A DNA stretch of 53,342 nucleotides from Nemertoderma westbladi (Eukaryota > Animalia > Xenacoelomorpha): the NCBI GenBank assembly GCA_032718475.1, contig JAUCBJ010007385.1, forward strand, positions 1 through 53,342, given 5' to 3'. Each line of letters begins with the position of its first letter. The stretch's first letter is position 1. Of this stretch, positions 1,947 through 48,007 are shown in pieces. The position numbers and the translations under genes were made by a program. The notes below the pieces were generated by a model, which worked only from the letters and a program-made list of their open reading frames with translations, did no database searches and was not told the DNA's origin.

Positions 1947-2203
1947 GCTTATGTGTACAGTTGAATGTCTACTGCTGTATTACAGTCTGAGCAAGTCTAG
2001 TAACTCAGTATTAACTGCTAGCCTATTAATTAATTACCGGTACTGCTACTCAGTGTAGCATGATATATATAATATATTAGAATACCGGTATGCTTATAGT
2101 ATATATAACTATTATTACAGACTAGGTTTATCACAGAATACCGGTATAATTTTAGCACAAATATATATAAAAATATAATAGGCCTATCGGAATACCGGTA
2201 TAC

Positions 2204-3852
2204 TACTAGGATCGGCATGCTGCATTGCAGCTGCATTTTTAAGAATGCTGTGCCGGCTTGTCAACAAAATTGCACCGCCACAACTCCCTATCACCCATGA
2301 CATTTGCTAGATCATCCGCATCTTTAAGGCCAGTGTCCTTTATGATGCGTCTCAAGAAAGTCATGGGCTGTCCACCATGCTTATTCACTCCATGAGGCTG
2401 CCAAAGTACAAGATTATGCACTGGCTGGTCCTCACGGCGAAAGCAATGTCCTGCAAAGCGGAGGCGATTTTGTTCTAGTGTCAAGCTTGGGGGAACCAAT
2501 GAGACACCTCCAATGTTATATAGTGTCTGGTTGGAGATGTGTGCATTGTACTTGACACAATGTACCCGGCGTAGCATTCTTGTGAATGTGCCATCCAGAG
2601 ATTTGGTGTCCTCAGCAGTTAGAGCCCAGCATGGACTCCCGTAGAGGAGTACTGGAACTACTGCTGCTCTAAATAATCGGACCTTAAGTTTCCGATTAAT
2701 TCTAGGTGACTTCCAAATCCTGGAAAGCCTATTCAAGGCTGCCCATGCCTTTCCCTTACGTATTCGAAGGTCCTCACCTGACTTCCGGATCCATGATCCC
2801 AGGTAACAGAAGTCGTCCACATGCTCAAGCATACCATCCTTTGAGCTTATGCTCAACCGATCAGAGACTTGCTGAGGACTTTCAAAGTTAACTGTCAGAA
2901 TTTTGGTCTTTCTGGAGTTTATAAAAAGACCAACACTAGAAGCAGCATGTTCTAATGAGCTGAGGAGCCGCTGGGCTCCCTCTAATGATTCTGAGAGTAC
3001 TCCTAAGTCATCAGCAAAGTCTAGATCAGTTAGGTACTTGGCAGGATTTCCACGACTTCTGGAGCCAGTAGGTGGAGTTATCATCACCCCATCATCATTA
3101 TGATGATCTAAGGACATGCGTAGAACATAGTCAACCACAATAATGAACAAGAATGGTGCAAGTGTGTCTCCTTGGAGGACGCCCCATAACACTTCAAATG
3201 GTTCTGTGTCACCGTCAACAGTAGACACAAATGTTGTCGAACCATCGTATACTGATCTGATTGCTGCAATAATTTCATCAGGAATCCCATATAATGAAAG
3301 TATGCTGAACATACGTGAGCGAGAGACTGAATCAAAGGCCTTGAAGAAGTCAACAAAGATAACAGCCAGATGCCTGTCTTTCTTTTTTGATAACTCTTCA
3401 ATTATCCTTCTAAGTGCCAAGATGGGCTCCATGGTCCCACGACCTTTACGGAACCCATTCTGATTTCCACGTAGCAGTCTCTCAATGGGATCCCTGATGC
3501 GATTTAATAGAATTCTATTGTATAGTTTTGCAGCAATCGAGATCAATGAGATTCCCCGAAAAGAACCATAGAGTGTTAGGTTGCCCTTCTTGGGAACTGG
3601 CACCAACTTATTTGTTTTCATTTCTTGTGGGACTCTTGTTGTACGGTACATGTCTACTATGATGGGATAGATGAGCTTTAAACACTCAGGTATTTTAAAG
3701 ACCTCAGGGGGAACACCATCTACTCCACTGGCACGATTGGTCTTAATGCTCTTTGCAGCAGCCTTAACTTCTGCAAAGGAGATATCGCCAATGGGAATAT
3801 CTGGGAGTACAGACTCAGACACTTTTACTTCTATAAAGTTATCAGGCATTCT
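2204..3852 (-). mobile_element. 5'-truncated RTE-clade LINE with 12-bp TSD
   Basis: TSD ATACCGGTATAC at 2192-2203 and 3853-3864. The paralogous BEL leader (~20136-20146) has this site only once (empty site). Short (GTA)n tail. Confidence 0.92.
2239..3849 (-). CDS. RTE reverse transcriptase (no endonuclease domain; 5' truncated)
   Basis: 536 aa with FRGISL, QNGFRKGR, FVDFFKAFDSV, GVLQGDTLAPFLF, DLDFADDL, FCYLGS and the RTE-type C-terminus RLRFAGHCFR. Confidence 0.9.
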   Translation of the reverse strand: MPDNFIEVKVSESVLPDIPIGDISFAEVKAAAKSIKTNRASGVDGVPPEVFKIPECLKLIYPIIVDMYRTTRVPQEMKTNKLVPVPKKGNLTLYGSFRGISLISIAAKLYNRILLNRIRDPIERLLRGNQNGFRKGRGTMEPILALRRIIEELSKKKDRHLAVIFVDFFKAFDSVSRSRMFSILSLYGIPDEIIAAIRSVYDGSTTFVSTVDGDTEPFEVLWGVLQGDTLAPFLFIIVVDYVLRMSLDHHNDDGVMITPPTGSRSRGNPAKYLTDLDFADDLGVLSESLEGAQRLLSSLEHAASSVGLFINSRKTKILTVNFESPQQVSDRLSISSKDGMLEHVDDFCYLGSWIRKSGEDLRIRKGKAWAALNRLSRIWKSPRINRKLKVRLFRAAVVPVLLYGSPCWALTAEDTKSLDGTFTRMLRRVHCVKYNAHISNQTLYNIGGVSLVPPSLTLEQNRLRFAGHCFRREDQPVHNLVLWQPHGVNKHGGQPMTFLRRIIKDTGLKDADDLANVMGDRELWRCNFVDKPAQHS

Positions 3853-4959
3853 ATACCGGTATACAGCTTACAGTTTGTAGTATATATAATTCTGGAATAG
3901 AATTAATTACAAGTACCGGTATAATTTCAGCCTAGATTTATAGAAATAAGATAATAGGCCTATCGTAAATACCGGTATATCAATTATTTTGGAATAATTG
4001 AATTTCTGAACTTTAGGGTTACTTGGTTACTTTAACTTACTTTATTACCGTTATTTAAGCAGTAATCCAACTGATATTGAGACCTAATGGTTGTATGGTA
4101 GGCCTACTATTTATAAATCGTTAGATTTGATTTATAATATATATATACCCGTTTTAATGGGTTTTGTCAATGTTTGAAATAAATGTTATTATTTCTGGGG
4201 AGTAATCACTACACAAAGCGGTGCGCTTTCAGTGAAGTGTTACTTATAAGACACTAAAACAAATAATTCTAATTTACCTAAGTTACTTAATACTACAAAT
4301 TACGTACAATTCGGGTTGAGATTACAATCTCTAAATAAACACAAAATTTACAAAAAACACAAAATACGAATTTTTAGGGTAATTTTACAAGAAGTCTACA
4401 AACCAGCCTAACAAAGGGTTAGAAAACTGGTTATTACACGGACAGGGTACTACGGTATTTGAAATAATAAGTAGTAGTAAATACACTGCGTTGTCTAGAT
4501 AGGAAAATACCACCGCCTGACGACCTATAGCCGTATCGCTATAGGTTCTACGTTATGTATCACGGAGTGTTCCTACCTAGAAGTTAATAGAGCTAATCGA
4601 ATGTGCCTATCAACCACTTTACAACACAAATATAATGTCTACAATAATTACTTCGGAAAGTACTGTACACTAAACCCTAAATTAGGTACGAGTACTTGTA
4701 CAACAAATAATCAGTAGTTAAATATACTTGAACAGCTAAAAGAACCACGGCATCTGCTGGAGTGACCGATGCACAAAATCACCAGTCTTTACCTACGCCG
4801 AGCAGCCCGTGTAGTACCGGGGTTAATTTAACTATAGCGGTATGTATAACAAACACAATTACTGTAGGAACAAACTTGGGGAATGAATGTTGCGGATAAT
4901 CGCATAAACTCTGAATAATAAATATTACGCTACGCGTACAAACTACTCAAACAAAATAC

Positions 4960-5560
4960 AGACCGAACACTGACAGACTACTATCAAGCCTAAACAAACT
5001 ACGGTATATGCAGACTCCGAAATGATTAGGGAGTATGCGCTCTAACCCAGTAGTGCGACTTATTCTTTAGTTGGGGGTTTACCTTACAGCGTTCGCTGCC
5101 CCGACTGCCTAACCGTACTTAATCGGACAGATGATCTACACACGCGGCAATCCGTTCAGACCTAATAACAGCCAGACACCTATCCAGCCTACAAATTATC
5201 TAAATAAAATTATACGCTACCCGTACAGACTTACACAAACAAAGTACAGACTAAACGATGGCAGACTACTCTCAAGCCTAAATAAACTACAGGACATGCA
5301 GACTCCGAAATGATTAGGGAGTATGCGCTCTAACCCAGTAGTGCGACTTATTCTTTAGTTGGGGGTTTACCTCACTGCGTTCGCTGCCCCTACTTCCTAA
5401 TCGTACTTAATCGGACAGGTGATCTACACACACTGCAATCCGTTCGGACTTAACAGCAATCAGACAACAGCTCAGCCTACAAATCGTCTGTACAATCTGA
5501 TCAGGTTTACACGCCTTCTGTTCAATACTGGCCTACAAACAAATAAAACTGACAGAAATA
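4960..5560 (-). repeat. 288-bp tandem repeat (~2 units) in BEL leader
   Basis: AATGATTAGGGAGTATGCGC at 5021 and 5309; mirrored at 18481/18769 in the second copy. Confidence 0.85.
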
Positions 5561-5777
5561 AGTAAGCTCCAAAAGAAACAAGGGGTGTACAGTCCCTAAT
5601 CTCTTAACCAGCCTACCGGTATACAACAATCAAATCGAATAATACTAGTGTACTTATACGGCAGTACCGGTTCTAGCGGTTGGGCCTACTGACCTACAGG
5701 TGTACTGTTCAGGTTTACCGGTTGACCGGTACTTTCAACTTTATTGCTTACTGCAATAAAGAAGCTATATCCTTTAA

Positions 5778-7019
5778 TGTTCGCGCTTTCAGACTTTTGG
5801 CAGTTTAACCCACCAAATTAAGATGTCTTCTAGATATTAAATCGGTTTTTAGTCTATGACAAGTATTTGATTCACTACACTAGTCGAAACCAATCCGTGC
5901 GCGACCATTCACCCGCTGGATATTCCCGGGAGATTGGGTTCGACGGTTTAATTTTATTGCTATGTAAGCTTAATGTATTATTCGACTGACAGTATTATAT
6001 AATCTCTGACAATATTATTCACCTTCGGTAATATTAACAGTTCCTTTAGGACGTGGCGCTTTATCTACATAAACAGAGTTATGACTTAAACTACTCACAA
6101 CGATATGGCTTAATTATAATTCACATATATGGCGCATTCTTTAGGAATTGCTTCTTTAACAGACTCACTCATACACAATGCTGCACAATACTGCACACTA
6201 ATCTGCCAATCTTCACTGATTTTAATCACATATAAAAGGAACACAGACTGACTCATGTAGGGTCTATCAAATAACATTAGATTCACTTCAAACCACTTTA
6301 ACATAAGTCACAATCGTTTATCTGTAACCTTTCTCTCTTACCTTCGGTATATCAAGAATATTGGGTTTCGGGGTTATTTCTCGTTATTCCAAATATAATT
6401 ATTCATCAACCATATTATGAAGAACTGACAGTAAATAGCAGTATAAAACAACAACTGAACACTGATTGTTATGAGTTTGCAATGTTTCAGCAGTCAGGAT
6501 GTATGATCATCAGTCAGCAGTAGTCGTTAGGTAGTCCGCAGTTAAAGGATATATGCCCTTTATAATTAAACCTACTAGTGTAAGACTAAAAACAGTAAAG
6601 CACAAAATACTTCCAAGCCGTTCTTTCTTTGGCTCAGGACTGAATGTAAACACTGCACATAGGCATTGCGTCATTTCTCGGAAATTTTCTGTACAAGGAG
6701 CCACAAAAACGCTCTAATTGGCTGACTGAACTGAGAGACGCCGTAGAACAAAGGAAATCAACACGTATGAATGTCAGCTGTTAACCGTAGTCATAGTAAC
6801 TACTGTTCAAGAGTAGCTATCACCCCTTTGCGTCACGAATTGCCATAGAATCATAAAATATGCCTTTCACAGTACACATACGGAGGAAATAGGTCTTAGA
6901 TCCTCTAAAAACACCGATACAGCAATAATACGGTCTCTTACACTTATTAAATCAACTACAGAGTATTTTAATGTAAAAGATAATAAAAATAACGGGGCAA
7001 TTCAGCAAAGGCTTTTACA
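5778..7019 (-). repeat. LTR of first BEL copy (1242 bp)
   Basis: On the minus strand it starts TGTAAAAGC and ends GCGCGAACA, the same termini as the LTRs at 16882 and 31482. Confidence 0.9.
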
Positions 7020-7471: not shown

Positions 7472-7856
7472 TCATTTCTTCGATCTTGCCCGTCCTTTCT
7501 TCCCCTGTAAATATCAATTCATATACTGTTACACTCACTTAATTACGTATATGTACTGTATATAGTAGACCTAAACCCACATTATATCCTATATTATATT
7601 TAGTCAAACAAACCTTCACTTTCTTTCCCTTTCCTCTACGACTTCTAGATCTGCTTCCTTTACCACGGCGACTCCTAGACCTGCTCTTCTTTCCCTTCTT
7701 ACTTCCCTTTCGTTTTTTACGTCTCCTTTTCTCCATTTCGTTCCGGCTGGTGGAACGATTACCACTCTCTGATAGGCTCCTACTTTTCCTTTCATCTAAG
7801 GCCCAACTCGGCAAACTATCCAGCCCTAAATCGCTATCTTCCTCTTGAACAGGCAT
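7472..7856 (-). CDS. Protamine-like basic protein, copy A (exons 7856-7614 and 7504-7472; 91 aa)
   Basis: Exon 1 (81 codons) MPVQEEDSDLGLDSLPSWALDERK...KKSRSRSRRGKGSRSRSRRGKGKKVK; phase-0 intron GTTTGT...TTACAG (109 nt); exon 2 GKKGRARSKK then TGA TGA. Confidence 0.72.
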
Positions 7857-7972
7857 GCTTTTTCAATGTATTTACCAAAAATTATGTACAGTATTTCCTA
7901 AAGAAAAAATGATATCAGAATTTATTTTGTAAATCATTTTTCTCCTAAATGACATAAGTTGATGTGTCGTTC

Positions 7973-8108
7973 TATTATATATCATAGTTTGAATTCCAGA
8001 ACTTAGTTTTGATTGGTTGATTTGAGCAATACTCTTCTGATTATCTGATTGGCTAAAATAAACTTGTATTTGGTAGGCGGTTTTGGTGGGAGGTTTACCC
8101 GTTAACGG
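7973..8108 (-). promoter_or_regulatory. Putative Pol II promoter of protamine-like copy A (TATA, two CCAAT boxes, CCGTTAACGG palindrome)
   Basis: Minus strand TATATAATA 7973-7981; CCAAT at 8012-8016 and 8048-8052; CCGTTAACGG 8099-8108. The same motifs recur upstream of copies B and C. Confidence 0.55.
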
Positions 8109-8169
8109 GATTCGGCATTACTATGTTATGGGTACCCACTTTTTGACCTTTTATTTGACCATGTTAATG

Positions 8170-8880
8170 GCTATTAACAGCCACGTCTCTTTCGAGACAA
8201 CTGGCGGAATGGGTGAAGCGGTTCGGTGTCCCCACGCGTTGCGCTTCTGACGGCGGCCCACAGTTCTCAGGAAAGGATTTCCTAAGCGTCTGGGGAGTCG
8301 AGCCTATCACATCCTCCCCAGTTTACCCACAGAGTAACGGCCTTGCGGAGTCCGCTGTCAAGGCGACTAAGGCGTTACTACTGTAACTAAGACAGGGGGG
8401 AAACTGGACTCATCGTCATTCCAGGAGGAACTCCTGGAACTTCGCAACTTCCCCTGCGCCCACGGAAAGTCGCCGGCTGACGACCCGCACGGAGCTCGAC
8501 CAGGCAGTGCCCTCGCTCCTAAAATCCCAGACAGCCACATACAATCGTGGCGCACGACCCCTACCCCCCTTAGCGGTAGGGGCACCTGTGCGGGTTCAAA
8601 ACCCCACATCGAAACGTTGGGACCGCACCGGGGTCATTGTGGAATCAAATCCCAACCGGAAGTACAGCGTTCGGACGCCTTCCGGTCGGTGCCTCACCCG
8701 CAACCGCCGCCACCTCATCCAGGGCACGGCCACTGGCATCAACGACGGCTCCAGCGCTGCCACGCCCCGTCCAACGCCACAGAAGGGCATGTTCACTGGG
8801 CTGACGAACAAGCCAGTGTGTCTCCCGATCGGCACGCCGTTCCTACCCACGCCGCCGAAGGCAACCGTCCAATGGACTAT
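8170..8880 (+). pseudogene. Ty3/Gypsy integrase C-terminal fragment, frameshifted
   Basis: Near-identical to 12292-12852; SDGGPQF, SSPVYPQSNGLAESAVK, RPLPPLAVG..VRVQ, RNRRHL. Confidence 0.82.
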
Positions 8881-8905
8881 GATAGTTTGTGTAGGGGTGG
8901 ATGGA

Positions 8906-9058
8906 CCGTTAACAGTATTGTAATTATTTTTTTAGAATTATTTGTGGGCGATTTGTGGGAATTATTTATTCCGTTAACAGTGTTGGGATTATTTGTGGGC
9001 AGTAATTCCGTTAACAGTATTGGAATTATTTGGGGGTGGTTATTCCGTTGACAGTATT
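8906..9058. repeat. Short degenerate repeat built on CCGTTAACAG
   Basis: Motif at 8906, 8971, 9008 and 9045 (last one CCGTTGACAG); spacing 65/37/37. Duplicated at ~12883-13035. Confidence 0.7.
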
Positions 9059-9428
9059 ACATTTCTGTTAAATACACAAGTCAATAATTATTAGCTATCG
9101 ACTCAGTAATTATCCGACCGAAGGAGATTTAAAGTTAAAGATATATTAAAAAATGTTATAAAAATATTCTAATAAAAATTAAAAAAAATAAAATAAAACC
9201 ATTCTTACGATACAAACAGTAAATAGAACAACAAACTCGTACGAAATTAAAATGACCGTGGACAGAATGAATATTTCATGTGATGCTGCGGAATTGAGTA
9301 GTTTTGTATTAATAATTAAATATAATGCAATGCTACAAACAGCAAATAAATATTTAGATCTGGTTACATAACTATCCAATAATATGTGGGCTCAATCTAT
9401 CTTATTTACTCGAGTCGGCTGTTAACAT

Positions 9429-10185
9429 TTACGAGTAGTATGCTTCGCACATGATCGATATAGCTCTATGAGCTCGACGGGAATAAGCCTTGTAAAAGTG
9501 GTCCCCACAGATCTTGGAGAGCCACAGATGGAAATCTTCCAGCTTCTCTCTTAGTAGAATGTACTTCGCTAAGACCTGGTAGGCGCGTGTGAATCCATTA
9601 CTGGCGAGACTACCTCCGAATACTTCTCCTATTCCAGGGATGTACTTTACACTCCGATTTCCCAACTCTCGAGCCAGAATCCGTCGATGTTTCTTCGTCT
9701 TCAGGATCTTCCCTATCTTCTTTCCGTTTCCACTTCTTCTCGCGTTTCCTCGACTTCCCTTACCCTGAAAGAATTGTATTGAGCATTTTGTAAAATGATT
9801 TTACGATGTTTAATAAGAACCGAGTCACGAAAGTAAACTAAAAAAAGTAAAGTTATCTTTGTACATTATTTCAGGGAATACGCACAAAGAATCACTTATT
9901 TCCAGTGCGATTCCCCCAGAACTACTGTATTCTGCCTAGAAGAAACTTACTCTTTTAGCGATCGTTTAAGGATGCAAGGCGCATAGATGAAACCGGGTTA
10001 ACTTGAACCCACGGTAGCCAGATATGTTAATTATAGGTAATGGGCTAAACGACAAGGATATCACAGAGAAATATATCCCAACATAAATTATATTGTATTA
10101 AAATAAATAAACAAACCTTCCCTTTCATCCCATTCCATCTACGACTCCTTGACCTGCTTCTATTCCCTTTCTTCTTCGCAGCCAT
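9429..10185 (-). CDS. BANF1-like: BAF-domain protein with protamine-like basic N-terminus, copy 1 (exons 10185-10117 and 9764-9429; 134 aa)
   Basis: Exon 1 MAAKKKGNRSRSRSRRWNGMKGK; phase-0 intron GTTTGT...TTTCAG (352 nt); exon 2 GKGSRGNARRSGNGKKIGKILKTKKHRRILARELGNRSVKYIPGIGEVFGGSLASNGFTRAYQVLAKYILLREKLEDFHLWLSKICG...CEAYYS. Aligns without gaps over ~63 aa to recalled human BAF ([63 protein letters not shown]). Confidence 0.88.
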
Positions 10186-10299
10186 TTAGTCCCAACACGG
10201 ATACAGTACCTGTTATTATTATCTATCCTAATTAATTTAAATTCTGTTACAGATTTAATAGAGCGATTCGTGTATGACAACTTTTTTCAATGTTTGTTA

Positions 10300-10407
10300 T
10301 TTATATATGAAGACTAAATTCTAGAATTAGTTAACCCACCGATTAAATTATATTATAGGTGGTTGATTGGATGTAATAAACCAACGGCGTATTAATTCTG
10401 TTAACGG
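10300..10407 (-). promoter_or_regulatory. Putative promoter of BAF-like copy 1
   Basis: Minus strand TATATAAA 10300-10307, TTCTAGAA ~10319, CCAAT 10366-10370, CCGTTAACAG 10398-10407. Confidence 0.5.
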
Positions 10408-10639
10408 TATTCAGAATCCCCCCCCCCCCCCTGGACATTACATTGTACTCATTCTATTGTCTTAATTTGGAACAAGTCTCCACCACCCACAACCTACGTA
10501 GGTATGGGAGGCCCACTAAATTATTATACTGTACCTACAAATCCTAATCGCTTGAAATTTTAATCATAAACAGTTGGGTCCTAATATTTATTAGCATGGT
10601 AATACTTATTTATATTAGCTTAAACAGGGTGTTATATAT

Positions 10640-10935
10640 CTTTTGGGGCGAGCCCCGAAATATGCGAAGCCTTAGCATTGGGGTAGGCCTACCACTAATG
10701 ATTTGTCTGTCGTTATTGTCTGTCGTCGTCGTCTAATATTTGATCGCTAATAACTCGGTTATTCCATAATAAACTTAAACCAAACTTGGTACGTATGTAG
10801 ACCGTCAAACGTTTAGAAAGAATCTGAAGTTTAGTCAAAAATCCGACTGTCTGACATTTTGCATTCTCGGGCCGAGAATGTCATGTACTTTTGGCGGGAA
10901 CGGCGACCCACACATACAATGAAAAAAAAAAGAGT
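10640..10935 (+). mobile_element. Possible non-autonomous Helentron/DINE-like element fragment (second copy ~14627-14925)
   Basis: T-run start, short inverted repeat GGGGCGAGCCCC, GTCT/(GTC)n microsatellite and AAACTTGGTA motif. Recognised by architecture only. Confidence 0.4.
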
Positions 10936-11224
10936 TTCGGTATAATTGTTAGTTAAAACTGATTTCTGAGATGTTTCTGACTGTTGTTAGGGGGTAAGTG
11001 TGATGAGTATTATTTTTCGCCAACTACTGTAGGTGAAGAAATTTGTTAAAAAGATAAGTTTGTGTAAGGCCGTGGACAGTTTTGTAAAACGAGATTATAC
11101 AAAATAATGGCACCCGGTCTTGAGGAGAGGGGCTGTAGGTTGCATTCCTTTTCGGTGCTACAGTAGCTAGTTTAAGGATATCAGTTCCGAGGTTGCTAAG
11201 AGATCAGAGCAACCTATGAGAGAT

Positions 11225-11280
11225 GTCACACCATACAGCGCAGCCGTACTCCAACTTGGTCGTACATAAAACTGGTGTAG
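11225..11280 (-). pseudogene. Tiny LINE ORF2 relic (also ~15215-15270)
   Basis: With one frameshift, the minus strand reads VRPxLEYGCAVW, a post-RT motif of CR1/L2/Jockey-group LINEs. Confidence 0.4.
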
Positions 11281-11646
11281 GCCTATATTATAAGCTAAAT
11301 AAATTTTAATATAATAAGATGAACCAGACTCAACTTCGATTAACGCATACTAGGGGAGTGCCCTGCCCTGCCCTGAATATGTCATTATTATGTTAGTCCT
11401 TGGTAAGTATGTTATTGTGTAGACCTATTATAACTCTCTTATATTAGTTAGCTAGTGTTTTTTTTCATATTGTTTTACCAGGCAGCTAGTGATTTCTAAT
11501 AGTACAAATAGCTATCGATTTTATATAGGTAATTTAAAAAATATAGGGTTTCAAATAATATTGCTGCACAATTTATTAATTAATATGTTTATTGTAAATC
11601 GTCTAAATTACTGCCACAGTTGGCCGGTATCGTAAACTGTTCGATA

Positions 11647-11932
11647 TTAAAGCATTTTGAAGAACATTTTGTCTGTAAGAACTTTATCTTTCGGCATTTT
11701 CTTCCCTTTTCCACGTTTATTCGATCTTCCCCGTCCTTTATTTCCCTGTAAATATCAATTCATATTCTGTTACACTCACTTAATTACGTATATGTACTGT
11801 ATATAGTAGACCTAAACCCACATTATATCCTATATTATATTTAGTCAAACAAACCTTCACTTTCTTTCCCTTTCCTCTACGACTTCTAGATCTGCTTCCT
11901 TTACCGCGGCGACTCCAATACAATTCAAACAT
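11647..11932 (-). CDS. Protamine-like copy B, leaderless variant (exons 11932-11855 and 11745-11647; 58 aa) or pseudogene
   Basis: The first ~60 codons of exon 1 are replaced by a short filler that supplies an in-frame ATG: MFELYWSRRGKGSRSRSRRGKGKKVK|GNKGRGRSNKRGKGKKMPKDKVLTDKMFFKML*. Splice sites and promoter motifs intact. Confidence 0.5.
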
Positions 11933-12249
11933 TTTTGAAATAATATGTATTTACCAAAAATTATGTACAGTATTTCCTAAAGAAAAAATGATATCAGAAT
12001 TTATTTTGTAAATCATTTTTCTCCTAAATGACATAAGTTGATGTGTCGTTCTATTATATATCATAGTTTGAATTCCAGAACTTAGTTTTGATTGGTTGAT
12101 TTGAGCAATACTCTTCTGATTATCTGATTGGCTAAAATAAACTTGTATTTGGTAGGCGGTTTTGGTGGGAGGTTTACCCGTTAACGGGATTCGGCATTAC
12201 TATGTTATGGGTACCCACTTTTTGACCTTTTATTTGACCATGTTAATGG

Positions 12250-12852
12250 CTATTAACAGCCACGTCTCTTTCGAGATAACTGGCGGAATGGGTGAAGGGG
12301 TTCGGTGTCCCCACGCGTTTCGCTTCTGACGGCGGCCCACAGTTCTCAGGAAAGGATTTCCTAAGCGTCTGGGGAGTCGAGCCTATCACATCCTCCCCAG
12401 TTTACCCACAGAGTAACGGCCTTGCGGAGTCCGCTGTCAAGGCGACTAAGGCGTTTCTAACTAAGACAAGGGGGAAACTGGACTCATCGTCATTCCAGGA
12501 GGGACTCCTGGAATCCCAGACAGCCACATACAATCGTGGCGCGCGACCCCTACCCCCCTTAGCGGTAGGGGAACCTGTGCGGGTTCAAAACACCACATCG
12601 AAACGTTGGGACCGCACCGGGGTCATTGTGGAATCCAATCCCAACCGGAAGTACAGCGTTCGGACGCCTTCCGGTCGGTGCCTCACCCGCAACCGCCGCC
12701 ACCTCATCCAGGGCACGGCCACTGGCATCAACGACGGCTCCAGCGCCGCCACGCCACAGAAGGGCGTGTTCACTGGGCTGACGAACAAGCCAGTGTGTCT
12801 CCGATCGGCCACGCCGTTCCTACCCACGCCCCCGAAGGCAACCGTCCAATAG
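12250..12852 (+). pseudogene. Ty3/Gypsy integrase C-terminal fragment (second copy)
   Basis: ORF 12292-12852: FGVPTRFASDGGPQF...ITSSPVYPQSNGLAESAVK...RNRRHL; contains the second D and the E of the DDE triad only, with internal deletions. Confidence 0.85.
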
Positions 12853-13404
12853 ACTATGATAGTTTGTGTAGGGGTGGATGGACCGTTAACAGTGTTGTAA
12901 TTATTTTTTTGGAATTATTTGTGGGCGATTTGTGGGAATTATTTATTCCGTTAACAGTGTTGGGATTATTTGTGGGCAGTAATTCCGTTAACAGTATTGG
13001 AATTATTTGGGGGCGGTTATTCCGTTAACAGTATTACATTTCTGTTAAATACACAAGTCAATAATTATTAGCTATCGACTCAGTAATTATCCGATCGAAG
13101 GAGATTTAAAGTTAAAGATATATTAAAAAAATTTATAAAAATATTCTAATAAAAATGAAAAAAATAAAATAAAGCCATTCTTACGATACAAACAGTAAAT
13201 AGAACAACAAACTCGTACGAAATTAAAATTACCGTGGACAGAATGAATATTTCATGTGATGGCGCGGAATTGAGTAGTTTTGTATTAATAATTAAATATA
13301 ATGCAATGCTACAAACAGCAAATAAATATTTAGATCTGGTTACATAACTATCCAATAATATGTGGGCTCAATCTATCTTATTAACTCGAGTCGGCTGTTA
13401 ACAT

Positions 13405-14161
13405 TTACGAGTAGTATGCTTCGCACATGATCGATATAGCTCTATGAGCTCGACGGGAATAGGCCTTGTAAAAGTGGTCCCCACAGATCTTGGAGAGCCA
13501 CAGATGGAAATCTTCCAGCTTCTCTCTTAGTAGAATGTACTTCGCTAAGACCTGGTAGGCGCGTGTGAATCCATTATTGGCGAGACTACCTCCAAATACT
13601 TCTCCTATTCCAGGGATGTACTTTACACTCCGATTTCCCAACTCTCGAGCCAGAATCCGTCGATGTTTCTTCGTCTTCAGGATCTTCCCTATCTTCTTTC
13701 CGTTTCCACTTCTTCTCGCGTTTCCTCGACTTCCCTTACCCTGAAAGAATTGTATTGAGCATTTTGTAAAATGATTTTACGATGTTTAATAAGAACCGAG
13801 TCACGAAAGTAAACTAAAAAAAGTAAAGTTATCTTTGTACATTATTTCAGGGAATACGCACAAAGAATCACTTATTTCCAGTACGATTCCCCCTGAACTA
13901 CTGTATTCTGCCTAGAAGAAACTTACTCTTTTAGCGATCGTTTAAGGATGCAAGGCGCATAGATGAAACCGGGTTAACTTGAACCCACGGTAGCCAGATA
14001 TGTTAATTATAGGTAATGGGCTAAACGTCAAGGATATCACAGAGAAATATATCCCAACATAAATTATATTGTATTAAAATAAATAAACAAACCTGCCCTT
14101 TCATCCCATTCCCTCTACGACTCCTTGACCTGCTTCTATTCCCTTTCTTCTTCGCAGCCAT
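13405..14161 (-). CDS. BANF1-like: BAF-domain protein with protamine-like basic N-terminus, copy 2 (exons 14161-14093 and 13740-13405; 134 aa)
   Basis: Same structure as copy 1, offset 3976 bp. Exon 1 MAAKKKGNRSRSRSRRGNGMKGQ; one S>N change in the BAF domain. Confidence 0.88.
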
Positions 14162-15638
14162 TTAGTCCCAACACGGATACAGTACCTGTTATTATTATCT
14201 ATCCTAATTAATTTAAATTCTGTTACAAATTTAATAGAGCGATTCGTGTATGACAACTTTTTTCAATGTTTGATATTTATATATGAAGACTAAATTCTAG
14301 AATTAGTTAACCCACCGATTAAATTATATTATACAGTAGGTGGTTGATTGGATGTAATAAACTAACGGCGTCTTAATTCTGTTAACGGTATTCAGAATCC
14401 CCCCCCCCCCCCTGGACATTACATTGTACTCATTCTATTGTCTTAATTTGGAACAAGTCTCCACCACCCACAACCTACGTAGGTATGGGAGGCCCACTAA
14501 ATTATTATACTGTACCTACAAATCCTAATCGCTTGAAATTTTAATCATAAACAGTTGGGTCCTAATATTTATTAGCATGGTAATACTTATTTATATTACT
14601 GTAGCTTAAACAGGGTGTTATATATCTTTTGGGGCGAGCCCCGAAATATGCGAAGCCTTAGCATTGTGGTAGGCCTACCACTAATGATTTGTCTGTCGTT
14701 ATTGTCTGTCGTCGTCGTCGTCGTCTAATATTTGATCGCTAATAACTCGGTTATTCCATAATAAACTTAAACCAAACTTGGTACGTATGTAGACCGTCAA
14801 ACGTTTAGAAAGAATCTGAAGTTTAGTCAAAAATCCGACTGTCTGACAGTTTGCATTCTCGGGCCGAGTATGTCATGTACTTTTGGCGGGAACGGCGACC
14901 CACACATACAAATGCGAAAAAAAGAGTTTCGGTATAATTGTTAGTTAAAACTGATTTCTGAGATGTTTCTGACTGTTGTTAGGGGGTAAGTGTGATGAGT
15001 ATTATTTTTCGCCAACTACTGTAGGTGAAGAAATTTGTTAAAAAGATAAGTTTGTGTAAGGCCGTGGACAGTTTTGTAATACGAGATTATACAAAATAAT
15101 GGCACCCGGTCTTTAGGAGAGGGGCTGTAGGTTGCATTCCTTTTCGGTGCTACAGTAGCTAGTTTAAGGATATCAGTTCCGAGGTTGCTAAGAGATCAGA
15201 GCAACCTATGAGAGATGTCACACCATACAGCGCAGCCGTACTCCAACTTGGTCGTACATAAAACTGGTATAGGCCTATATTATAAGCTAAATAAATTTTA
15301 ATATAATAAGATGAACCAGACTCAACTTCGATTAACGCATACTAGGGGAGTGTCCTGCCCTGCCCTGAATATGTCATTATTATGTTAGTCCTTGGTAAGT
15401 ATGTTATTGTGTAGACCTATTATAACTCTCTTATATTAGTTAGCTAGTGTTTTTTTTCATATTGTTTTACCAGGCAGCTAGTGATTTCTAATAGTACAAA
15501 TAGCTATCGATTTTATATAGGTAATTTAAAAAATATAGGGTTTCAAATAATATTGCTGCACAATTTATTAATTAATATGTTTATTGTAAATCGTCTAAAT
15601 TACTGCCACCGTTGGCCGGTATCGTAAACTGTTCGATA

Positions 15639-16089
15639 TTAAAGCTTTTTGAAGAACATTTTGTCTGTAAGAACTTTATCTTTCGGCATTTTCTTCCCTT
15701 TTCCACGTTTATTCGATCTTCCCCGTCCTTTCTTTCCCTGTAAATATCAATTCATATTCTGTTACACTCACTTAATTAGGTATATGTACTGTATATAGTA
15801 GACCTAAACCCACATTATATCCTATATTATATTTAGTCAAACAAACCTTCCCTTTCTTTCCCTTTCCTCTACGACTTCTAGATCTGCTTCCTTTACCTCG
15901 GCGACTCCTAGACCTGCTCTTCTTTCCCTTCTTACTTCCCTTTCGTTTTTTACGTCTCCTTTTCTCCATTTCGTTCCGGCTGGTGGAACGATTACCACTC
16001 TTTGATAGGCTCCTACTTTTCCTTTCATCTAAGGCCCAACTCGGCAAATTATCCAACCCCAAATCACTTTCTTCAGGTTGAACAGGCAT
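15639..16089 (-). CDS. Protamine-like basic protein, copy C (exons 16089-15847 and 15737-15639; 113 aa)
   Basis: Exon 1 of 81 codons ending GKGKKGK; phase-0 GTTTGT...TACAG intron; exon 2 GKKGRGRSNKRGKGKKMPKDKVLTDKMFFKKL*. Confidence 0.75.
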
Positions 16090-16881
16090 AATTATTTAAT
16101 ATATTACCGATAATTATATATGTCCTAAACAAAAAATGGTTTCAGAATTTCTTTTGTAAATCATTTTTCTCCTAATTGACATAGATTGACAATTAGAAGA
16201 AAATACGTTACAAAAGAAATTCTGATATAATTTTTTGTTTACAGATTTTTGATAGATTTTGATTTTTTATAGATTGACATAGATTGATGTGCAGTTCTAT
16301 TATATATAATATTTTGAATTCCAGAACTTAGTTTTGATTGGTTGATTTGAGCAATACTGTTCTGATTATTTGATTGGCTAAAACTAAATGGTATTTGGTG
16401 GCGCTTTTGGTGGGAGGTTTACCCGTTAACGGTGTTAATTTTGATGAGGGGCGAATCAGTGCAATTTAAAGAAGAACGCTTGAGTTAGGCGTTTCCATGT
16501 ATTCACCATTAGAAAGACAAATAAAACTGCACCTACCTTCCCTACTCTCCCCTACATACTGTAGTATAAGTCGCACAGTTGTGTACAGTAGTCTTAGCTT
16601 CCTTACATTAATATTTTCTTATTAAATAATCCCAAACAAATATAGCCTAGCTATGTAATTATACCCCTACAGTATGCTATGCGAGCTAGCAGTGACCGTT
16701 GATGAACCTACACTAGCACTGTCTCGGTGGGAGACATTAATTTTTATTAAATAAGACAATTATGTTGATGTTTTAAAACAAATTATCCGTAGTTTTTTTA
16801 TAATTTTGTACAGTACCGTAGATGGACTTTATTTTTCTCCTTTCTATTCATTCCATTATTAGATTATATCAAAACAGATAA

Positions 16882-18105
16882 TGTAAAAGCTTTTGCTGAA
16901 TTGTCCGGTTATTTTTCCTTATTTTTCCCGTAAAATACTCTGTAGTTGGTTTACCAGGCATAAAAAGGCCGTGTCCTTGCTGTACTGGTGTTTTAGCGGA
17001 CATAAAAGCTATTTCTTCTGTATTTATACTTTAGAGGACATAATCCGTAATTCCGTGACGTAAAAGCTCGATACTCTTGAAAACAGTGTCGCTACCATGA
17101 CGACAGCTAGCAGCTGATATTGCCACGTCGACGTTTCTTTGTTTCTCTGTTCTCTCGTTGTTCAGGTTGACCAATCAGAGCGTTTGTTGTCTTTGTGTTG
17201 GAGGTATATACAGAAACTCAGTAGTTCAGTGTTATGTTTTTGCCCAGAGCCTAAGAACCGGCTTTGGCACCTCCGTGTTTTCAGTTTTTAGTCTTACACT
17301 AGTAGGTTTAATTATAAAGGGCATATATCCTTTAACTGACATACCGATCAAACTCATGGAATCACTGCTGACTGATCATACATGCTGACTGCTGAAACAT
17401 TGCAAACTCATAACAATCAGTGTTTTCATTGTTGTTTTATACTGCTATTTACCGTCAGTTCTTCATAATATGGTTGATGAATAATTATATTTGGAATAAC
17501 GATAAATAACCCCGAAACCCAATATTCTTGATATACCGAAGGTAAGAGAGAAGGGTTACAGATAAACGATTGTGACTTATGTTAAAGTGGTTTGAAGTGA
17601 ATCTAATGTTATTTGATAGACCCTACATGAGTCAGTCTGTGTTCCTTTTATATGTGACTAAAATCAGTGAAGATTGGCAGATTAGTGTGCAGTATTGTGC
17701 AGCATTGTGTATGAGTGAGTCTGTTAAAGAAGCAATTCCTAAAGAATGCGCCATATATGTGAATTATAATTAAGCCATATCGTTGTGAGTAGTTTAAGTC
17801 ATAACTCTGTTTATATAGATAAAGCGCCACGTCCTAAAGGAACTGTTAATATTACCGAAGGTGAATAACATTGTCAGAGATTATATAGTACTGTCAGTCG
17901 AATAATACATTAGGCTTACATAGCAATAAAATTAAACCGTCGAACCCAATCTCCCGGGAATATCCAGCGGGTGAATGATCGCGCACAGATTGGTTTCGAC
18001 TAGTGTAGTGAATCAAATACTTGTCATAGACTAAAAACAGATTTAATATCTAGAAGACATCTTAATTTGGTGGGTTAAACTGCCAAAGGTCTGAAAGCGC
18101 GAACA
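16882..18105 (+). repeat. 5' LTR (1224 bp)
   Basis: TGTAAAAGCTTTTGCTG...GCGCGAACA; direct repeat of 31482-32690. Confidence 0.93.
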
Positions 18106-18329
18106 TTAAAGGATATAGCTTCTTTATTGCAGTAAGCAATAAAGTCGAAAGTACCGGTCGACCGGTAACCAGTAGGCCTGACTGCCTGATCATCCGGACC
18201 GGTACCTACTTCCGTATAAGTACAGCAGTATTATTCGATTTGATTATATATGCCGGTAGGTCTTAATAATTAATCGGGGACGCCTGGTTTTTATTGGGAT
18301 TTTACTTAGGCCTATTTCTGTCAGTTTTA

Positions 18330-18960
18330 TTTGTTTGTAGGCCAGTATTGAACAGAAGGCGTGTAAACCTGATCAGATTGTACAGACAATTTGTAGGCTG
18401 AGCTGTTGTCTGATTGCTGTTAGGTCCGAACGAATTGCAGTGTGTGTAGATCACCTGTCCGATTAAGTACGATTAGGCAGTAGGGGCAGCGAACGCAGTA
18501 AGGTAAACCCCCAACTAAAGAATAAGTCGCACTACTGGGTTAGAGCGCATACTCCCTAATCATTTCGGAGTCTGCATGTCCTGTAGTTTATTTAGGCTTG
18601 AGAGTAGTCTGCCATCGTTTGGTCTGTACTTTGTTTGTGTAAGTCTGTACGGGTAGCGTATAATTTTATTTAGATAATTTGTAGGCTGGATAGTTGTCTG
18701 GCTGTTATTAGGTCTGAGCGGATTGCAGCGTGTGTAGATCACTTGTCCGATTAAGTACGGTTAGGAAGTAGGGGCAGCGAACGCGGTAAGGTAAACCCCC
18801 AACTAAAGAATAAGTCGCACTACTGGGTTAGAGCGCATACTCCCTAATCATTTCGGAGTCTGCATGTCCTGTAGTTTGTTTAGGCTTGATAGTAGTCTGT
18901 CAGTGTTCGGTCTGCATTTTGTTTGAGTAGTTTGTACGGGTAGCGTAATATTTATTATTC
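18330..18960 (+). repeat. 288-bp tandem repeat in BEL leader
   Basis: TAGGGGCAGCGAACGC at 18481 and 18769. Confidence 0.85.
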
Positions 18961-19879
18961 AGAGTTTATGCGATTATCCGCAACATTCATTCCCCAAGTT
19001 TGTTCCTACAGTAATTGTGTTTGTTATACATACCGCTATAGTTAAATTAACCCCGGTACTACACGGGCTGCTCGGCGTAGGTCAAGACTGGTGATTTTGT
19101 GCATCGGTCACTCCAGCAGATGCCGTGGTTCTTTTAGCTGTTCAAGTATATTTAACTACTGATTATCTGTTATACAAGTACTCGTACCTAATTTAGGGTT
19201 TAGTGTACAGTACTTTCCGAAGTAATTATTGTAGACATTATATCTGTGTTGTAAAGTGGTTGATAGGCACATTCGATTAGCTCTATTAACTTCTAGGTAG
19301 GAACACTCCGTGATACATAACGTAGAACCTATAGCGATACGGCTATAGGTCGTCAGGCGGTGGTATTTTCCTATCTAGACAACGCAGTGTATTTACTACT
19401 ACTTATTATTTCAAATACCGTAGTACCCTGTCCGTTGTAATAACCGGTTTTCTAACCCTTTGTTAGGCTGGTTTGTAGACTTCTTGTAAAATTACCCTAA
19501 AAATTCGTATTTGTGTTTTTGTAAATTTTTGTGTTTATTTAGAGATTGTAATCTCAACCCGAATTGTACGTAATTTGTAGTATTAAGTAACTTAGGTAAA
19601 TTAGTATTATTTGTTTTAGTGTCCTGTACGTAACACTTCACTGAAAGCGCACCGCTTTGTGTAGTGATTACTCCCCAGAAATAATAACATTTATTTCAAA
19701 CATTGACAAAACCCATTAAAACGGGTATATATATATTATAAATCAAATCTAACGATTTATAAATCGTAGGCCTACCATACAACCATTAGGTCTCAATATC
19801 AGTTGGATTACTGCTCAAATAACGGTAATAAAGTAAGTAAAGTAACCAAGTAACCCTAAAATTCAGAAATTCAATTATT

Positions 19880-20310
19880 TAAAATAATTGATATACCGGT
19901 ATTTACGATAGGCCTATTATCTTTATTTCTATAAATTTCGGCTGAAATTATACCGGTACTTGTAATTAATTCTAGTTTGTAATTATACTTATATATATAC
20001 ACTATAAGTGTAAACTGCATACCGGTATTTACGATAGGCCTATTATCTTTATTTCTATAAATCTAGGCTGAAATTATACCGGTACTTGTAATTAATTCTA
20101 TTCTAGAATTATATATACTACAAACAGTAAGCTGTATACCGGTATTCCGATAGGCCTATTATATATTTGTATATATTTGTGCTAAAATTATACCGGTATT
20201 CTGTGATAAACCTAGTCTGTAATAATAGTTATATATACTATAAGCATACCAGTATTCTAATATATTATATATCACGCTACACTGAGTAGCAGTACCGGTA
20301 ATTAATTACT
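19880..20310 (+). repeat. ATACCGGTA palindrome-rich degenerate repeats before the gag ATG
   Basis: TACCGGTA recurs at roughly 50-70 bp spacing, with TAGGCCTA in between. Confidence 0.7.
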
Positions 20311-20388
20311 AGGCTAGCAGTTAATACTGAGTTATTAGACTTACTCAGACTGTAATACAGCAGTAGACATTCAACGGTATACATAGTC

Positions 20389-22410
20389 ATGTCTGATACT
20401 AAGCAGAACCTGTCAGACAGTTTATTAGATGTAACTATCTGCGACTCAGATAGAGACGTACAAACGTCTGGTCGTAAATCCAGTTCACCTCCCACTGTGA
20501 GGAAGGTCATCCCTCCAGTAGTAATAACAGAACCTAGGCTGGTCCAACATCGTAGGTCTATCATAGGCACTCGAGCTCAGGTCAAGCGGGACCAAAAGGC
20601 AGCGGAACAGCAACAACCCGCTAGTCAAGAACTGATTCCTCAGCGGCCCAGCAGCTCCAGTAGTGAGGATACTGTAGAGCTGACACCCGAGCGCGGAGCA
20701 GAGATGACGGATGCGGTTTATACGGATCCCCTTCTCATCCTTCCTGCAGCCGTGCTCGCTGGGTTATTGATCGCGGTGGAAGAACACCAGATCGATTGGG
20801 CGAGAAGTCAACGGTCAACTAGAGATAGCTACGCGGGATACACGAGTGAAGAACTGAAGTCTATTGTCGAGTCGCAATGGAACTTCCCCGGACCCGGACT
20901 CCCGTTTGATTTATCAGAAGCTGCCTGGGAAGACATACACCGGATGGGAGTAGCCAAGGAAACCATCGATCCAGCTGTATGGAAGAGGTCCGCAGCCGGA
21001 TACGCACAGGGATTCTTCAGCTCTATGGAGCGAGTAGAGAGACAACTGTTTCAACAACCTCAAGGACCTCAAGAGCAGGGATCGCTGCTTTATCAAGTTA
21101 GAGAAAGAGTTTTGCGGATTAGGCTAATCTTATCCGCCTTTGAGGAGGCTTCTAAAAGAAAACAAGACACGTCGTTGCAAGTTGCCGTAAAAACTTGGTT
21201 TCAACGGGTGAGTCGCCAGGTTCAAGGAGCAGCTCAGTGGAAAGCTCAGTTGGAGGAGCGCTCAACCCATGGAGAATCGACGGACGCTATTTTTTCCCAA
21301 GTGGAAAGTGATGCAACGGCAGAGAAACCGCATAAGAAGGATGCCATTGATATCTATCTGTCAGACTATCAGCGTTTTTTGGGAGATGATGAGTTGAGGA
21401 GAAGGTTAGAGGGACTTAGCCCTAATAGCGAAGGAGCCAAACTCGTGTTAGATGCGATTGATGTGGATAGGTTAGCGGCGAACCAAGCTAAATTCGATGA
21501 ACAACTCCGCATCGCTAGAGAACAAGAAGAACAAGTAAAGAAAAAACGTATAGAAGACAGAAAAGCAGCGGCAGTAGCAGCAGCAGTGGCAGCTGCAGAA
21601 GCAGAAACAAAAGCGGCAGCGGCAGTGGCAGAAGCAGAAACAAAAGCGGCAGCGGCAGTGGCAGCAGCAGAGGCAAAAGCGGCAGTAGCAGCAGCAAAGG
21701 CAGCGGCTGAAGCGGAAGGACGCAAGCGGGAGGCAGTGGCAGAAGCCGAACGGAGAGCGACTGAAGAAACCACCCAATTAGAATTGGAAAACATTCAGGA
21801 GAATCAAGACTGCATAAATAAACAGTTAACAGCTAGTAATATGCAGATGATGAATCGATCTACTCCCAAACGACAGGGATATACATCATCTGAGGAAGGC
21901 GATACCACCGACACTGAAGGCGGAAGAAATCGATCTCGCCTAAGCAGACGTAAAAGAACATTCCACCGGCAGAAATTGCCTGATTTGCCTCCAGCTGTTA
22001 GAAGGCAACTAAATAACACCAAAGTAGGTAGTACAGAACCCACAGACCAAATAATTACAATAGAGAGACTCCCTACTATAGTAGATGAGCCTGAAATAAT
22101 TAGGCCTGTTCTTGAAATCACCCCTTCGGTGATAGACACACCTGTGCTCCCTGAAACTACTTCTAAATTCCCTCTGCATAGCACTAAGCTACCTGTGCCC
22201 CGCAGAACTGCCCAAGAGACAGTTCAGGTCCTGGACCCCGAGCGAAATATTCACAATTTGTCGCCCGTTGTCCCTCGTCCACCCGCTACAACGTTGGCGA
22301 CTCCCGCTTACGTTGTAGCGGGTGGACGAGAGACGGCGGGGGATGGATCTCCTGCTCGGGCAGATGCAAGAGACTGTCCAGCAATTCAAGGGCACAGTAA
22401 GGGAAAGTAG
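20389..22410 (+). CDS. BEL polyprotein N-terminal part (extended gag leader, Ala/Glu/Lys-rich coiled-coil), frameshifted from the remainder
   Basis: 673-aa ORF; homologous to the 5' gag region of copy 1, where the junction to the downstream region is in frame. Confidence 0.8.
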   Translation: MSDTKQNLSDSLLDVTICDSDRDVQTSGRKSSSPPTVRKVIPPVVITEPRLVQHRRSIIGTRAQVKRDQKAAEQQQPASQELIPQRPSSSSSEDTVELTPERGAEMTDAVYTDPLLILPAAVLAGLLIAVEEHQIDWARSQRSTRDSYAGYTSEELKSIVESQWNFPGPGLPFDLSEAAWEDIHRMGVAKETIDPAVWKRSAAGYAQGFFSSMERVERQLFQQPQGPQEQGSLLYQVRERVLRIRLILSAFEEASKRKQDTSLQVAVKTWFQRVSRQVQGAAQWKAQLEERSTHGESTDAIFSQVESDATAEKPHKKDAIDIYLSDYQRFLGDDELRRRLEGLSPNSEGAKLVLDAIDVDRLAANQAKFDEQLRIAREQEEQVKKKRIEDRKAAAVAAAVAAAEAETKAAAAVAEAETKAAAAVAAAEAKAAVAAAKAAAEAEGRKREAVAEAERRATEETTQLELENIQENQDCINKQLTASNMQMMNRSTPKRQGYTSSEEGDTTDTEGGRNRSRLSRRKRTFHRQKLPDLPPAVRRQLNNTKVGSTEPTDQIITIERLPTIVDEPEIIRPVLEITPSVIDTPVLPETTSKFPLHSTKLPVPRRTAQETVQVLDPERNIHNLSPVVPRPPATTLATPAYVVAGGRETAGDGSPARADARDCPAIQGHSKGK

Positions 22411-32690: not shown

Positions 32691-32691
32691 C

Positions 32692-34050: not shown

Positions 34051-34070
34051 ATGGTAAATATTCCAGTGGG

Positions 34071-47790: not shown

Positions 47791-48007
47791 TATCAGATCA
47801 GATAGTAGGCCTACTGCTACTGATCAGCTCACTGTCTGTGTTGCTGTGTTGTGTTGTACTGCTGTACTGACAGTTGAGCTGTGTGGGTTGATTGATTGAT
47901 TTTATACATACTGCACGCACATTACTGCATTACTGAATAGGCCTATACTCTATAGGCCTATATACTTAAATCCTAATTTACCGGAAATTTATTTTGCATT
48001 GTTTTAA

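Follow-up and report, generated by a model that had tools for sequence, protein, structure and literature searches.

PL-type and tailed BAF-like genes with a common 5′ half in a tandem cluster of Nemertoderma westbladi

The minus strand of the analysed window (the whole 53,342-nucleotide stretch of contig JAUCBJ010007385.1 from Nemertoderma westbladi) carries five genes in the order PL-BAF-PL-BAF-PL (Table 1), as a preliminary description of this DNA had reported for their order and single orientation. The genes for lysine- and arginine-rich PL proteins and those for BAF domains behind a basic tail (tailed BAF) are, on their sequences, almost certainly homologous, and common ancestry is supported for the 5′ half, comprising a promoter-proximal motif, the end of exon 1, the intron site and the first 19 codons of exon 2. 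In the full account, given a probability of about 0.4, this half would be common by descent, the PL genes would have arisen from tailed BAF by loss of the domain, and both products would condense DNA in sperm.

By comparison of the two copies of the repeated unit, the PL/BAF alternation is the product of one recent duplication of about 4 kb, and the cluster therefore represents about three independent genes, not five. BAF_B differs from BAF_A at about 5 coding positions. The cluster is flanked by two Bel/Pao elements, and a neighbouring RING protein had no match in word-indexed protein searches.

Table 1. Positions of the PL and tailed BAF genes and of the duplicated unit in the window
Feature	Position	Strand	Remarks
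PL_A core promoter	16275..16336	-	shared TATA-proximal motif, TATA 16306-16300, predicted start 16275
PL_A exon 1 CDS, 81 codons	15847..16089	-	acidic leader followed by a K/R/S/G tract containing SRSRSRRG twice
PL_A intron, 109 nt, phase 0, GT..AG	15738..15846	-	splicing predicted
PL_A exon 2 CDS, 32 codons + stop	15639..15737	-	codons 1-19 homologous to BAF exon 2
BAF_A core promoter	14251..14313	-	motif, TATA 14283-14277, start site 14251 = beginning of X4 contig
BAF_A exon 1 CDS, 23 codons, basic tail	14093..14161	-	
BAF_A intron, 352 nt, phase 0	13741..14092	-	spliced out in run X4
BAF_A exon 2 codons 1-19, remainder of 42-residue basic tail	13684..13740	-	
BAF_A domain, 92 codons, without internal intron	13405..13683	-	opens in register with residue 1 of human BAF
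PL_B	11647..11932	-	PL_C-type promoter; 28-nt filler in place of most of exon 1
BAF_B, second tailed BAF gene	9429..10185	-	exons 10185-10117 and 9764-9429
PL_C, 91 aa	7472..7950	-	start site 7950; exon 1 CDS 7856-7614; intron 109 nt; exon 2 7504-7472
Duplicated unit, two copies	8516-11916 and 12505-15908	.	97.5% identity

Aligned in register across the shared phase-0 intron, PL and BAF agreed at 75 of 105 nt and 20 of 35 codons, and the junction register was the best among all offsets tried. The last 16 codons of exon 1 matched at 38/48 nt (p = 1e-5) and the first 19 codons of exon 2 at 37/57 nt (p = 4e-5), both against composition-matched shuffles, with 9/19 amino acids in the latter (p = 0.003, shuffles), and block shuffles of 2, 4 and 7 codons gave p ≤ 0.003; the segments were those chosen in the preliminary description, and these p values are somewhat optimistic. 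The codon classes of serine and arginine agreed in all eight cases (Ser 3/3, Arg 5/5), and 10 of the 15 differing codons were one base apart; the excess of identical codons taken alone (10/20, p = 0.20) was non-significant. A blastn alignment spanning the donor gave 78% identity over 85 nt (E 6e-13). The intron opens with GTTTGTTT in all five genes, which accounts for 5 of the 9 occurrences of this 8-mer on both strands of the window. Upstream, the 30 nt preceding the TATA box resembled BAF in PL_C (p = 0.006) and PL_A (p = 0.03), and spacing was similar in PL and BAF (TATA to start, 31 and 32 nt; 5′UTR, 94 and 90 nt), while likeness in the 5′UTR, in the intron beyond 8 nt and in the 3′UTR was non-significant (p = 0.2–0.6). 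At BAF residue 1 precisely, likeness dropped from 7–12/15 nt to 2/15.

The exon likeness, common phase-0 donor and colinear 19-codon starts of exon 2 given in the preliminary description are borne out, the likeness exceeding that between composition-matched shuffled sequences. Its term paralogues applies to the 5′ half only. A common end of exon 1 was recovered over the last 16 codons, but in BAF_A this exon ends in GMKGQ and not in the described xKxK, and PL_B is without most of exon 1. Contrary to its statement that PL stops after codon 19 of exon 2, this exon extends to 32 codons in both PL_A and PL_B, and in PL_C it closes at TGA TGA after 10.

The PL_A protein (113 aa; K 23%, R 17%, K+R 40%) has a net charge of +35. 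The 28-nt filler of PL_B includes an in-frame ATG at 11932, and by its sequence the gene could encode a 58-aa product or be a pseudogene. Neither of the two PL exons matched a Pfam family, and the PL leader had no match in a word-indexed search of longer proteins. PL-type SNBPs are described as rich in both Lys and Arg with masses of 6–40 kDa, and P-type protamines as highly arginine-rich with masses of 3–10 kDa (PMC11607694); PL_A agrees in composition with the PL type. P-type protamine was rejected as a class (Arg 17–20%, Lys equal or higher, 91–113 aa), and the earlier label of protamine does not hold at 17% Arg. H1-type PL, defined by a winged-helix globular domain (PMC13148410), was likewise rejected, given the lack of a Pfam match in the PL exons.

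The tailed BAF domain belongs to the BAF family by its match to Pfam PF02961 (64.1 bits, cut-off 25; E 1.7e-17) and its predicted five-helix BAF fold (pLDDT 90.1, TM 0.78 to human BAF), obtained from an alignment-based model that replaced a poor single-sequence fold (pLDDT 48.7). In Foldseek at E ≤ 0.001, 8 of 8 matches were human BAF (TM 0.77–0.78). Residues K6, G25, G27 and L46, which are essential for DNA binding in BAF (PMC2173821), are conserved in the alignment, and the LEM-binding residues G47, V51, K53 and K54 are replaced by A, L, R and E. Position 14, proline in BAF, is also glutamate here; glutamate occurs at position 54 in 2 and at position 14 in 1 of 128 relatives. Human BAF carrying 54E loses emerin binding, and the 14A mutant always condenses chromatin. 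A canonical BANF1 orthologue was rejected on the altered LEM-binding residues and the 42-residue N-terminal tail. The domain is predicted by modelling to fold as BAF and, tentatively, to dimerise through helix 3: the homodimer scored 0.43 against 0.15 for the best control, with contacts agreeing to 100% and pLDDT ≥ 85, but as BAF dimers are solved and the model may reproduce them, this indicates likeness only. The mark used for homodimers was attained by 7 of 16 homodimers from animals and by 0 of 30 single chains from eukaryotes.

Identity of the domain was 33% to human BAF and at most 34% to any of 128 aligned BAF domains (128 of 132 hits; 4 segments under 70 aa were dropped), and a tree of these 128 relatives did not place tailed BAF. 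A comparable SR tail was found in none of the 132, and BAF exon 2 had no match in word-indexed protein searches. Searches of metagenomes for a related locus confirmed 0 of 247 candidates; among 24 viral candidates, 3 gave a match of no more than 31 residues at 38% and were set aside. A scan with a degenerate BAF motif gave 1 metagenome locus.

Expression was read from a public run (X4) recognised as cDNA-like by its behaviour. A joint found in X4 only skips 352 nt with CT..AC ends at the BAF_A intron, one X4 contig starts at the BAF_A start site, and another, differing at 1 position, covers 7671 to 7950 of PL_C, its end at 7950 being loose. Both BAF-type and PL-type start sites are transcribed, and the BAF intron is spliced. 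Among the X4 joints listed, none linked PL exon 1 to BAF exon 2. The X4 records, which are filtered, include neither cover of PL exon 2 and the PL 3′UTR nor a PL splice joint, an absence that carries no weight. The runs also contain further diverged PL-like sequences (loose ends at 7614 and 7736); a third tail type occurs in X4 and X3, and there is a diverged BAF paralogue.

That low-complexity basic tails arose by convergence and share the intron position by chance is very improbable. Sequences rich in K, R, S and G match easily and the excess of identical codons is non-significant, but the shuffles and block shuffles, the codon classes, the rare common 8-mer at the donor and the promoter motif largely refute it. 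It is also improbable, to a lesser degree, that unrelated older neighbours swapped a 5′ module by gene conversion or unequal crossing-over, neither being wholly descended from the other. Such an exchange would suit the mosaic PL_B and the patchy likeness, strong at the junction, weak in the promoter and non-significant elsewhere; this patchiness, however, tracks constraint on coding, splice and promoter sequence, the pattern that an old duplication of the whole gene should leave, and the TATA-to-ATG spacing is preserved. As to direction, left undecided in the preliminary description, descent of PL from tailed BAF by deletion is now modestly favoured on sequence grounds, since divergence of the domain from other BAFs exceeds that between the two tails (57% identical, 20/35; pS 0.46, pN 0.24), an argument that uses 23 synonymous sites, may carry gene-conversion bias and was made without this animal's canonical BAF. 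The alternative graft still stands but is rather unlikely: one tandem copy of an older PL family would have received an in-frame BAF open reading frame behind codon 19 of its exon 2, as a retrocopy or by DNA-level fusion, giving a chimeric DNA-bridging protein. With a graft at the tail split, the folded domain would have had to outrun the disordered tail, unless the donor was an already diverged paralogue. The collapse of likeness exactly at BAF residue 1, the diverged PL-like sequences in the runs and PL_B, which shows that chimeras form at this locus, speak for a graft. The domain without internal intron would suit a retrocopy, given the coding intron after 42 codons in fish banf2w (PMC8268354), but this comparison relies on one fish gene, and neither a poly(A) remnant nor a target-site duplication was noticed by eye.

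The lack of any BAF trace in PL also speaks for a graft. The check that the preliminary description proposed, for decayed BAF signal past PL exon 2, found none: codons 20–32 matched BAF at 5/39 nt, below chance; DNA tests behind PL_A gave p = 0.10–0.68, and p was 0.40 and 0.89 at the protein level; shifting the frame by one base after codon 19 uncovered no likeness either (p = 0.68, 0.50); and matches in PL_C (p = 0.016–0.07) lay in AT-rich DNA past the BAF gene, outside the domain. A hand-picked pairing of the PL 3′ end with the last BAF helix and 3′UTR was rejected (p = 0.12, post hoc). At 46% divergence, simulated in-place decay was detectable in 94 and 75 of 100 trials, against only 32 and 5 of 100 at 55%; descent of PL from tailed BAF therefore requires that deletion be assumed. 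It is unlikely, finally, that genes of this ancestry serve outside sperm, as chromatin factors of soma or oocyte, as RNA-binding proteins or as factors related to retroelements. BAF acts on retroviral DNA and the cluster lies between two Bel/Pao elements, the tissue and library of X4 are not on record, and basic composition alone is described as a poor guide (PMC12216123). Against this, the genes resemble SNBP genes in size and charge, in the leader and the basic tract, in the TATA promoter and in their variable tandem copies, and the testis-enriched mouse BAF-L acts in histone-protamine exchange (PMC8877947).

A sperm role for PL and tailed BAF is probable from composition and analogy. In the favoured account, a BAF paralogue that already bore the tail would have been copied in tandem, deletion of the domain from one copy would have founded the PL genes, and both products would serve as DNA-condensing sperm proteins. 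The tailed BAF dimer would bridge two DNA duplexes, its 42-residue basic tails would neutralise charge, and the altered LEM face may release it from the nuclear envelope. Phosphorylation control is established for SR-type motifs, and the SR repeats may confer it here. PL would be made as a precursor and lose its acidic leader, with about 69 residues at 54% K+R remaining; SNBP genes are typically described as having tandem variable copies and leader cleavage (PMC9917458, PMC12216123).

For most protamines the traces of the ancestor are lost, and origins are argued from a few cases (H1, H2B, HMG box). Here domain-bearing and domain-less genes still align in promoter, intron and codons, which makes the origin open to a direct test in related species. 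Whichever direction holds would be new, be it descent of a protamine from BAF or capture of BAF by a protamine-like gene; if the BAF-to-PL transition is true, its intermediate and end states are preserved side by side. Tailed BAF is also a natural variant that, by prediction, would condense DNA while not bound to the nuclear envelope. A sperm packing system derived from BAF, made of tailed, envelope-independent BAF and domain-less PL descendants and independent of H1, H2B and HMG boxes, is a tentative proposal; a literature search returned no paper on a BAF-derived sperm protein.

Compared with BAF/BANF1 (PF02961; PDB 1ci4), tailed BAF has the same predicted five-helix fold, GIG motif and DNA-binding residues and, as a tentative prediction, the helix-3 dimer interface, and differs in its low identity, its SR/K/G tail, a domain without intron and the changes G47A, V51L, K53R, K54E and P14E. 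Vertebrate BAF-L/BANF2 is a BAF paralogue tied to spermiogenesis; it has about 90 aa and no tail and reportedly does not bind DNA (PMC8877947), whereas tailed BAF keeps the DNA-contact residues and adds a basic tail. One vertebrate BAF-L gene has an intron upstream of the domain, following a non-coding exon 1 and just upstream of the ATG (PMC8268354 Table 2), a layout from which, by analogy, an upstream tail could grow and which speaks for descent of PL from tailed BAF. The hypothetical protein P0111 of the acanthocephalan Neoechinorhynchus agilis also has its BAF domain preceded by a K/R-rich extension at the N-terminus (96 aa, K+R 32%), but with 28% domain identity and only 2 SR/RS dipeptides, unlike PL exon 1, and on sequence its extension likely arose independently of the SR tail. 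The review of SNBP origins, in the part available, lists H1, H2B, HMG and de novo origins, with BAF absent (PMC9917458). Drosophila HMG-box SNBPs and the SPKK-tailed sperm H2B of hydrozoans and echinoids resemble the present genes in independent domain recruitment, tandem amplification and fast change (PMC9917458), with another chromatin domain than BAF. H1-derived PL proteins and protamines (molluscs, tunicates, liverwort, wasps, spiders) similarly combine a folded chromatin domain with a K/R-rich tail that is freed from it (PMC13148410, PMC11607694); here the domain is BAF instead of a winged helix, the tail is N-terminal, and tail and domain would be separated at the level of the gene, not by the cleavage described there.

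PL_A, a tail-only basic (protamine-like, PL) gene, and BAF_A, a BAF gene with a basic N-terminal tail, were compared without gaps, anchored on the splice junction. Identity was 84/126 nt and 21/42 residues (shuffle means, 47.5 and 7.6; p = 1e-5), and in the core of 16 + 19 codons, block shuffles preserving repeat periodicity gave p = 5e-5, 5e-5 and 0.003. The exon similarity reported in the preliminary description thus exceeds that of composition-matched shuffles and, judged from the sequences, points firmly to homology. In the core, codon class agreed for Arg (5/5, p = 0.03) and Ser (3/3, p = 0.15); the excess of identical codons was not significant by itself (10/20, p = 0.20). PL and BAF also aligned in the 30 nt upstream of the TATA box (p = 0.006 for PL_C, 0.03 for PL_A), with no significant alignment in the next 30 nt, TATA-to-start spacer, 5′ UTR, intron body or 3′ UTR (p = 0.14–0.99). 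The 5′ UTR lengths are close (94 and 90 nt). The common phase-0 donor was confirmed, all five introns being phase 0 and opening with GTTTGTTT (PL splicing is predicted).

The proposed PL-BAF-PL-BAF-PL order in one orientation was recovered, but because the locus contains a 97.5% identical repeat, with 84% identity between PL_A and PL_C, the alternating order stems from a single recent duplication, or perhaps from an uncollapsed allele. Between exons 1 of PL_A and PL_C, synonymous divergence (pS) was 0.091 and nonsynonymous divergence (pN) 0.034, in line with purifying selection, over few sites.

Features of the locus and its surroundings
Feature	Positions	Strand	Description
PL_A		minus	two exons; 113 aa
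BAF_A		minus	two exons; 134 aa
PL_B		minus	two exons; most of exon 1 gone
BAF_B		minus	two exons; 134 aa
PL_C		minus	two exons; 91 aa; TGA TGA stop after 10 exon 2 codons
Duplicated unit	12505-15908; 8516-11916
PL_A extra segment	16126-16274		~98 nt more from TATA to ATG, PL_A only; forms an inverted repeat, start-site motif duplicated; other runs include contigs lacking it
Donor	14083-14092		7 to 8 of 10 letters as in the banf2w intron 1 donor printed in PMC8268354 (Table 2), probably by chance
Short repeat	14630-14900; copy near 10650-10900		probably SINE or MITE; many matching contigs in 4/4 runs
Integrase-like fragment	8168-8923; 12280-12852	plus	within duplicated unit
Bel/Pao, right	16882-32690		near full-length; LTRs 16882-18105 and 31482-32690 (96.7%); 2062-aa pol frame 22319-28507
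Bel/Pao, left	1-7019		inverted, diverged; extends past left window end
Non-LTR retrotransposon	2239-3867	minus	RT domain; interrupts left Bel/Pao
Non-LTR retrotransposon	32680-37634	plus	RT domain
RING/B-box gene	44845-47823	minus	one 992-aa frame, TRIM-like; long tandem repeat of 9 codons

The window is animal DNA dense in transposons (RT LINEs, a Bel/Pao element, a RING/B-box gene), in which the PL/BAF genes occupy a 10-kb island flanked by two Bel/Pao copies in opposite orientation. No matching 5-nt sequence was seen at the flanks of the right copy. The fragment in the duplicated unit resembles the end of an LTR retrotransposon that encodes integrase; a Pfam search with it gave no match, and the first 396 residues of the RING/B-box protein retrieved no homologue.

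Among four public sequencing runs, X4 behaves as cDNA, though none is catalogued as RNA. Only X4 has a contig omitting exactly the 352-nt BAF intron (contig start, 14251); another X4 contig carries a PL_C-type exon 1 with one difference over 280 nt, and its end at 7950 bears a loose stretch of 24 letters, presumably a template-switch adapter. Each of these ends coincides with the A in TGTCA, at 32 and 31 nt past TATATAA; PL and BAF genes are therefore both transcribed, and their start sites are equivalent. Run X1 carries a BAF paralogue (29 differences in 237 nt), and other PL-like 5′ parts occur in the runs (loose ends at 7736). In a third tail type, found in X4 and also in intron-bearing X3, the exon 1 end runs straight into RGRSKRRGKK without an intron; by eye, its 30 nt match exon 2 codons 5–14 of PL_A at 18 positions and of BAF at 17 (PL_A versus BAF, 20).

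Human BAF residue 1 aligns in register with exon 2 codon 20, and exactly there PL likeness falls from 7–12 to 2 matches per 15 nt. The domain passes Pfam and is modeled with the BAF fold (pLDDT 90; TM 0.78 to 1ci4); a homodimer predicted via residues 41–51 and 90–92 scored 0.43 versus 0.15 for the control, which likeness to solved dimers may explain. By alignment, tailed BAF retains all of residues 6, 25, 27 and 46, which human BAF needs to bind DNA, and has A, L, R and E at 47, 51, 53 and 54, essential for emerin binding; the human 54E mutant loses emerin binding and has reduced DNA binding (PMC2173821). Among 128 BAF relatives, E54 is shared by 2 and E14 by 1.

N-terminal extensions of at least 15 residues occur in 56 of 132 BAF relatives, some models perhaps being mis-started; only one, acanthocephalan, has a K+R content above 30%, and SR/RS dipeptides never number more than four. 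Because no such tail occurs among these relatives, the SR/basic tail is, on this sampling, derived and not ancestral to BAF. The K/R-rich acanthocephalan extension (P0111/P0133, 96 residues) showed no likeness to PL exon 1 and possibly marks an independent tailed BAF.

Descent of PL from a tailed BAF is given a probability of about 0.55. No relative shares more than 34% identity with the domain, against 57% between the tails, which suggests that divergence of the domain began before the tails separated; this was counted for BAF first, as was the intron immediately upstream of ATG in a fish BAF-L gene (PMC8268354, Table 2). The suggested search for decayed BAF downstream of PL exon 2 was negative. 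Simulated whole-domain decay in place was mostly detectable at the measured pS of 0.46 and mostly missed at 0.55. A BAF origin of PL would therefore probably have involved deletion of the domain. Insertion of BAF into a pre-existing PL gene would fit the abrupt end of likeness at BAF residue 1, the larger PL-like family and a domain without a coding intron, where the fish gene has one after 42 codons (PMC8268354); we consider it less likely than BAF first, and module exchange between genes less likely still.

Origins of SNBPs (sperm nuclear basic proteins) named in the available part of PMC9917458 are H1, H2B, HMG box and de novo. The corresponding parts of PMC13148410 and PMC12216123 contain no mention of BAF, and that of PMC13251019 mentions it only as the SWI/SNF complex. 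No BAF-derived or BAF-fused sperm protein was found in the titles or abstract openings searched, which cover few of the subscription journals; much SNBP biochemistry appears there, and an earlier description may exist. The family, which connects basic proteins devoid of the domain with a tailed BAF paralogue, is real and apparently previously unnoticed; its direction and sperm role are less settled than its homology.

PL_A has an acidic leader followed by a 69-residue tract of 54% K+R, an arrangement like that of precursor-type sperm proteins (PMC12216123). Unlike H1-derived PLs, it lacks the defining winged helix (PMC13148410), and its Arg content is too low for a protamine (PMC11607694). By composition PL_A would be PL-like, and a candidate for a sperm role. 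Mouse BAF-L is testis-enriched and works in histone–protamine exchange without DNA binding (PMC8877947).
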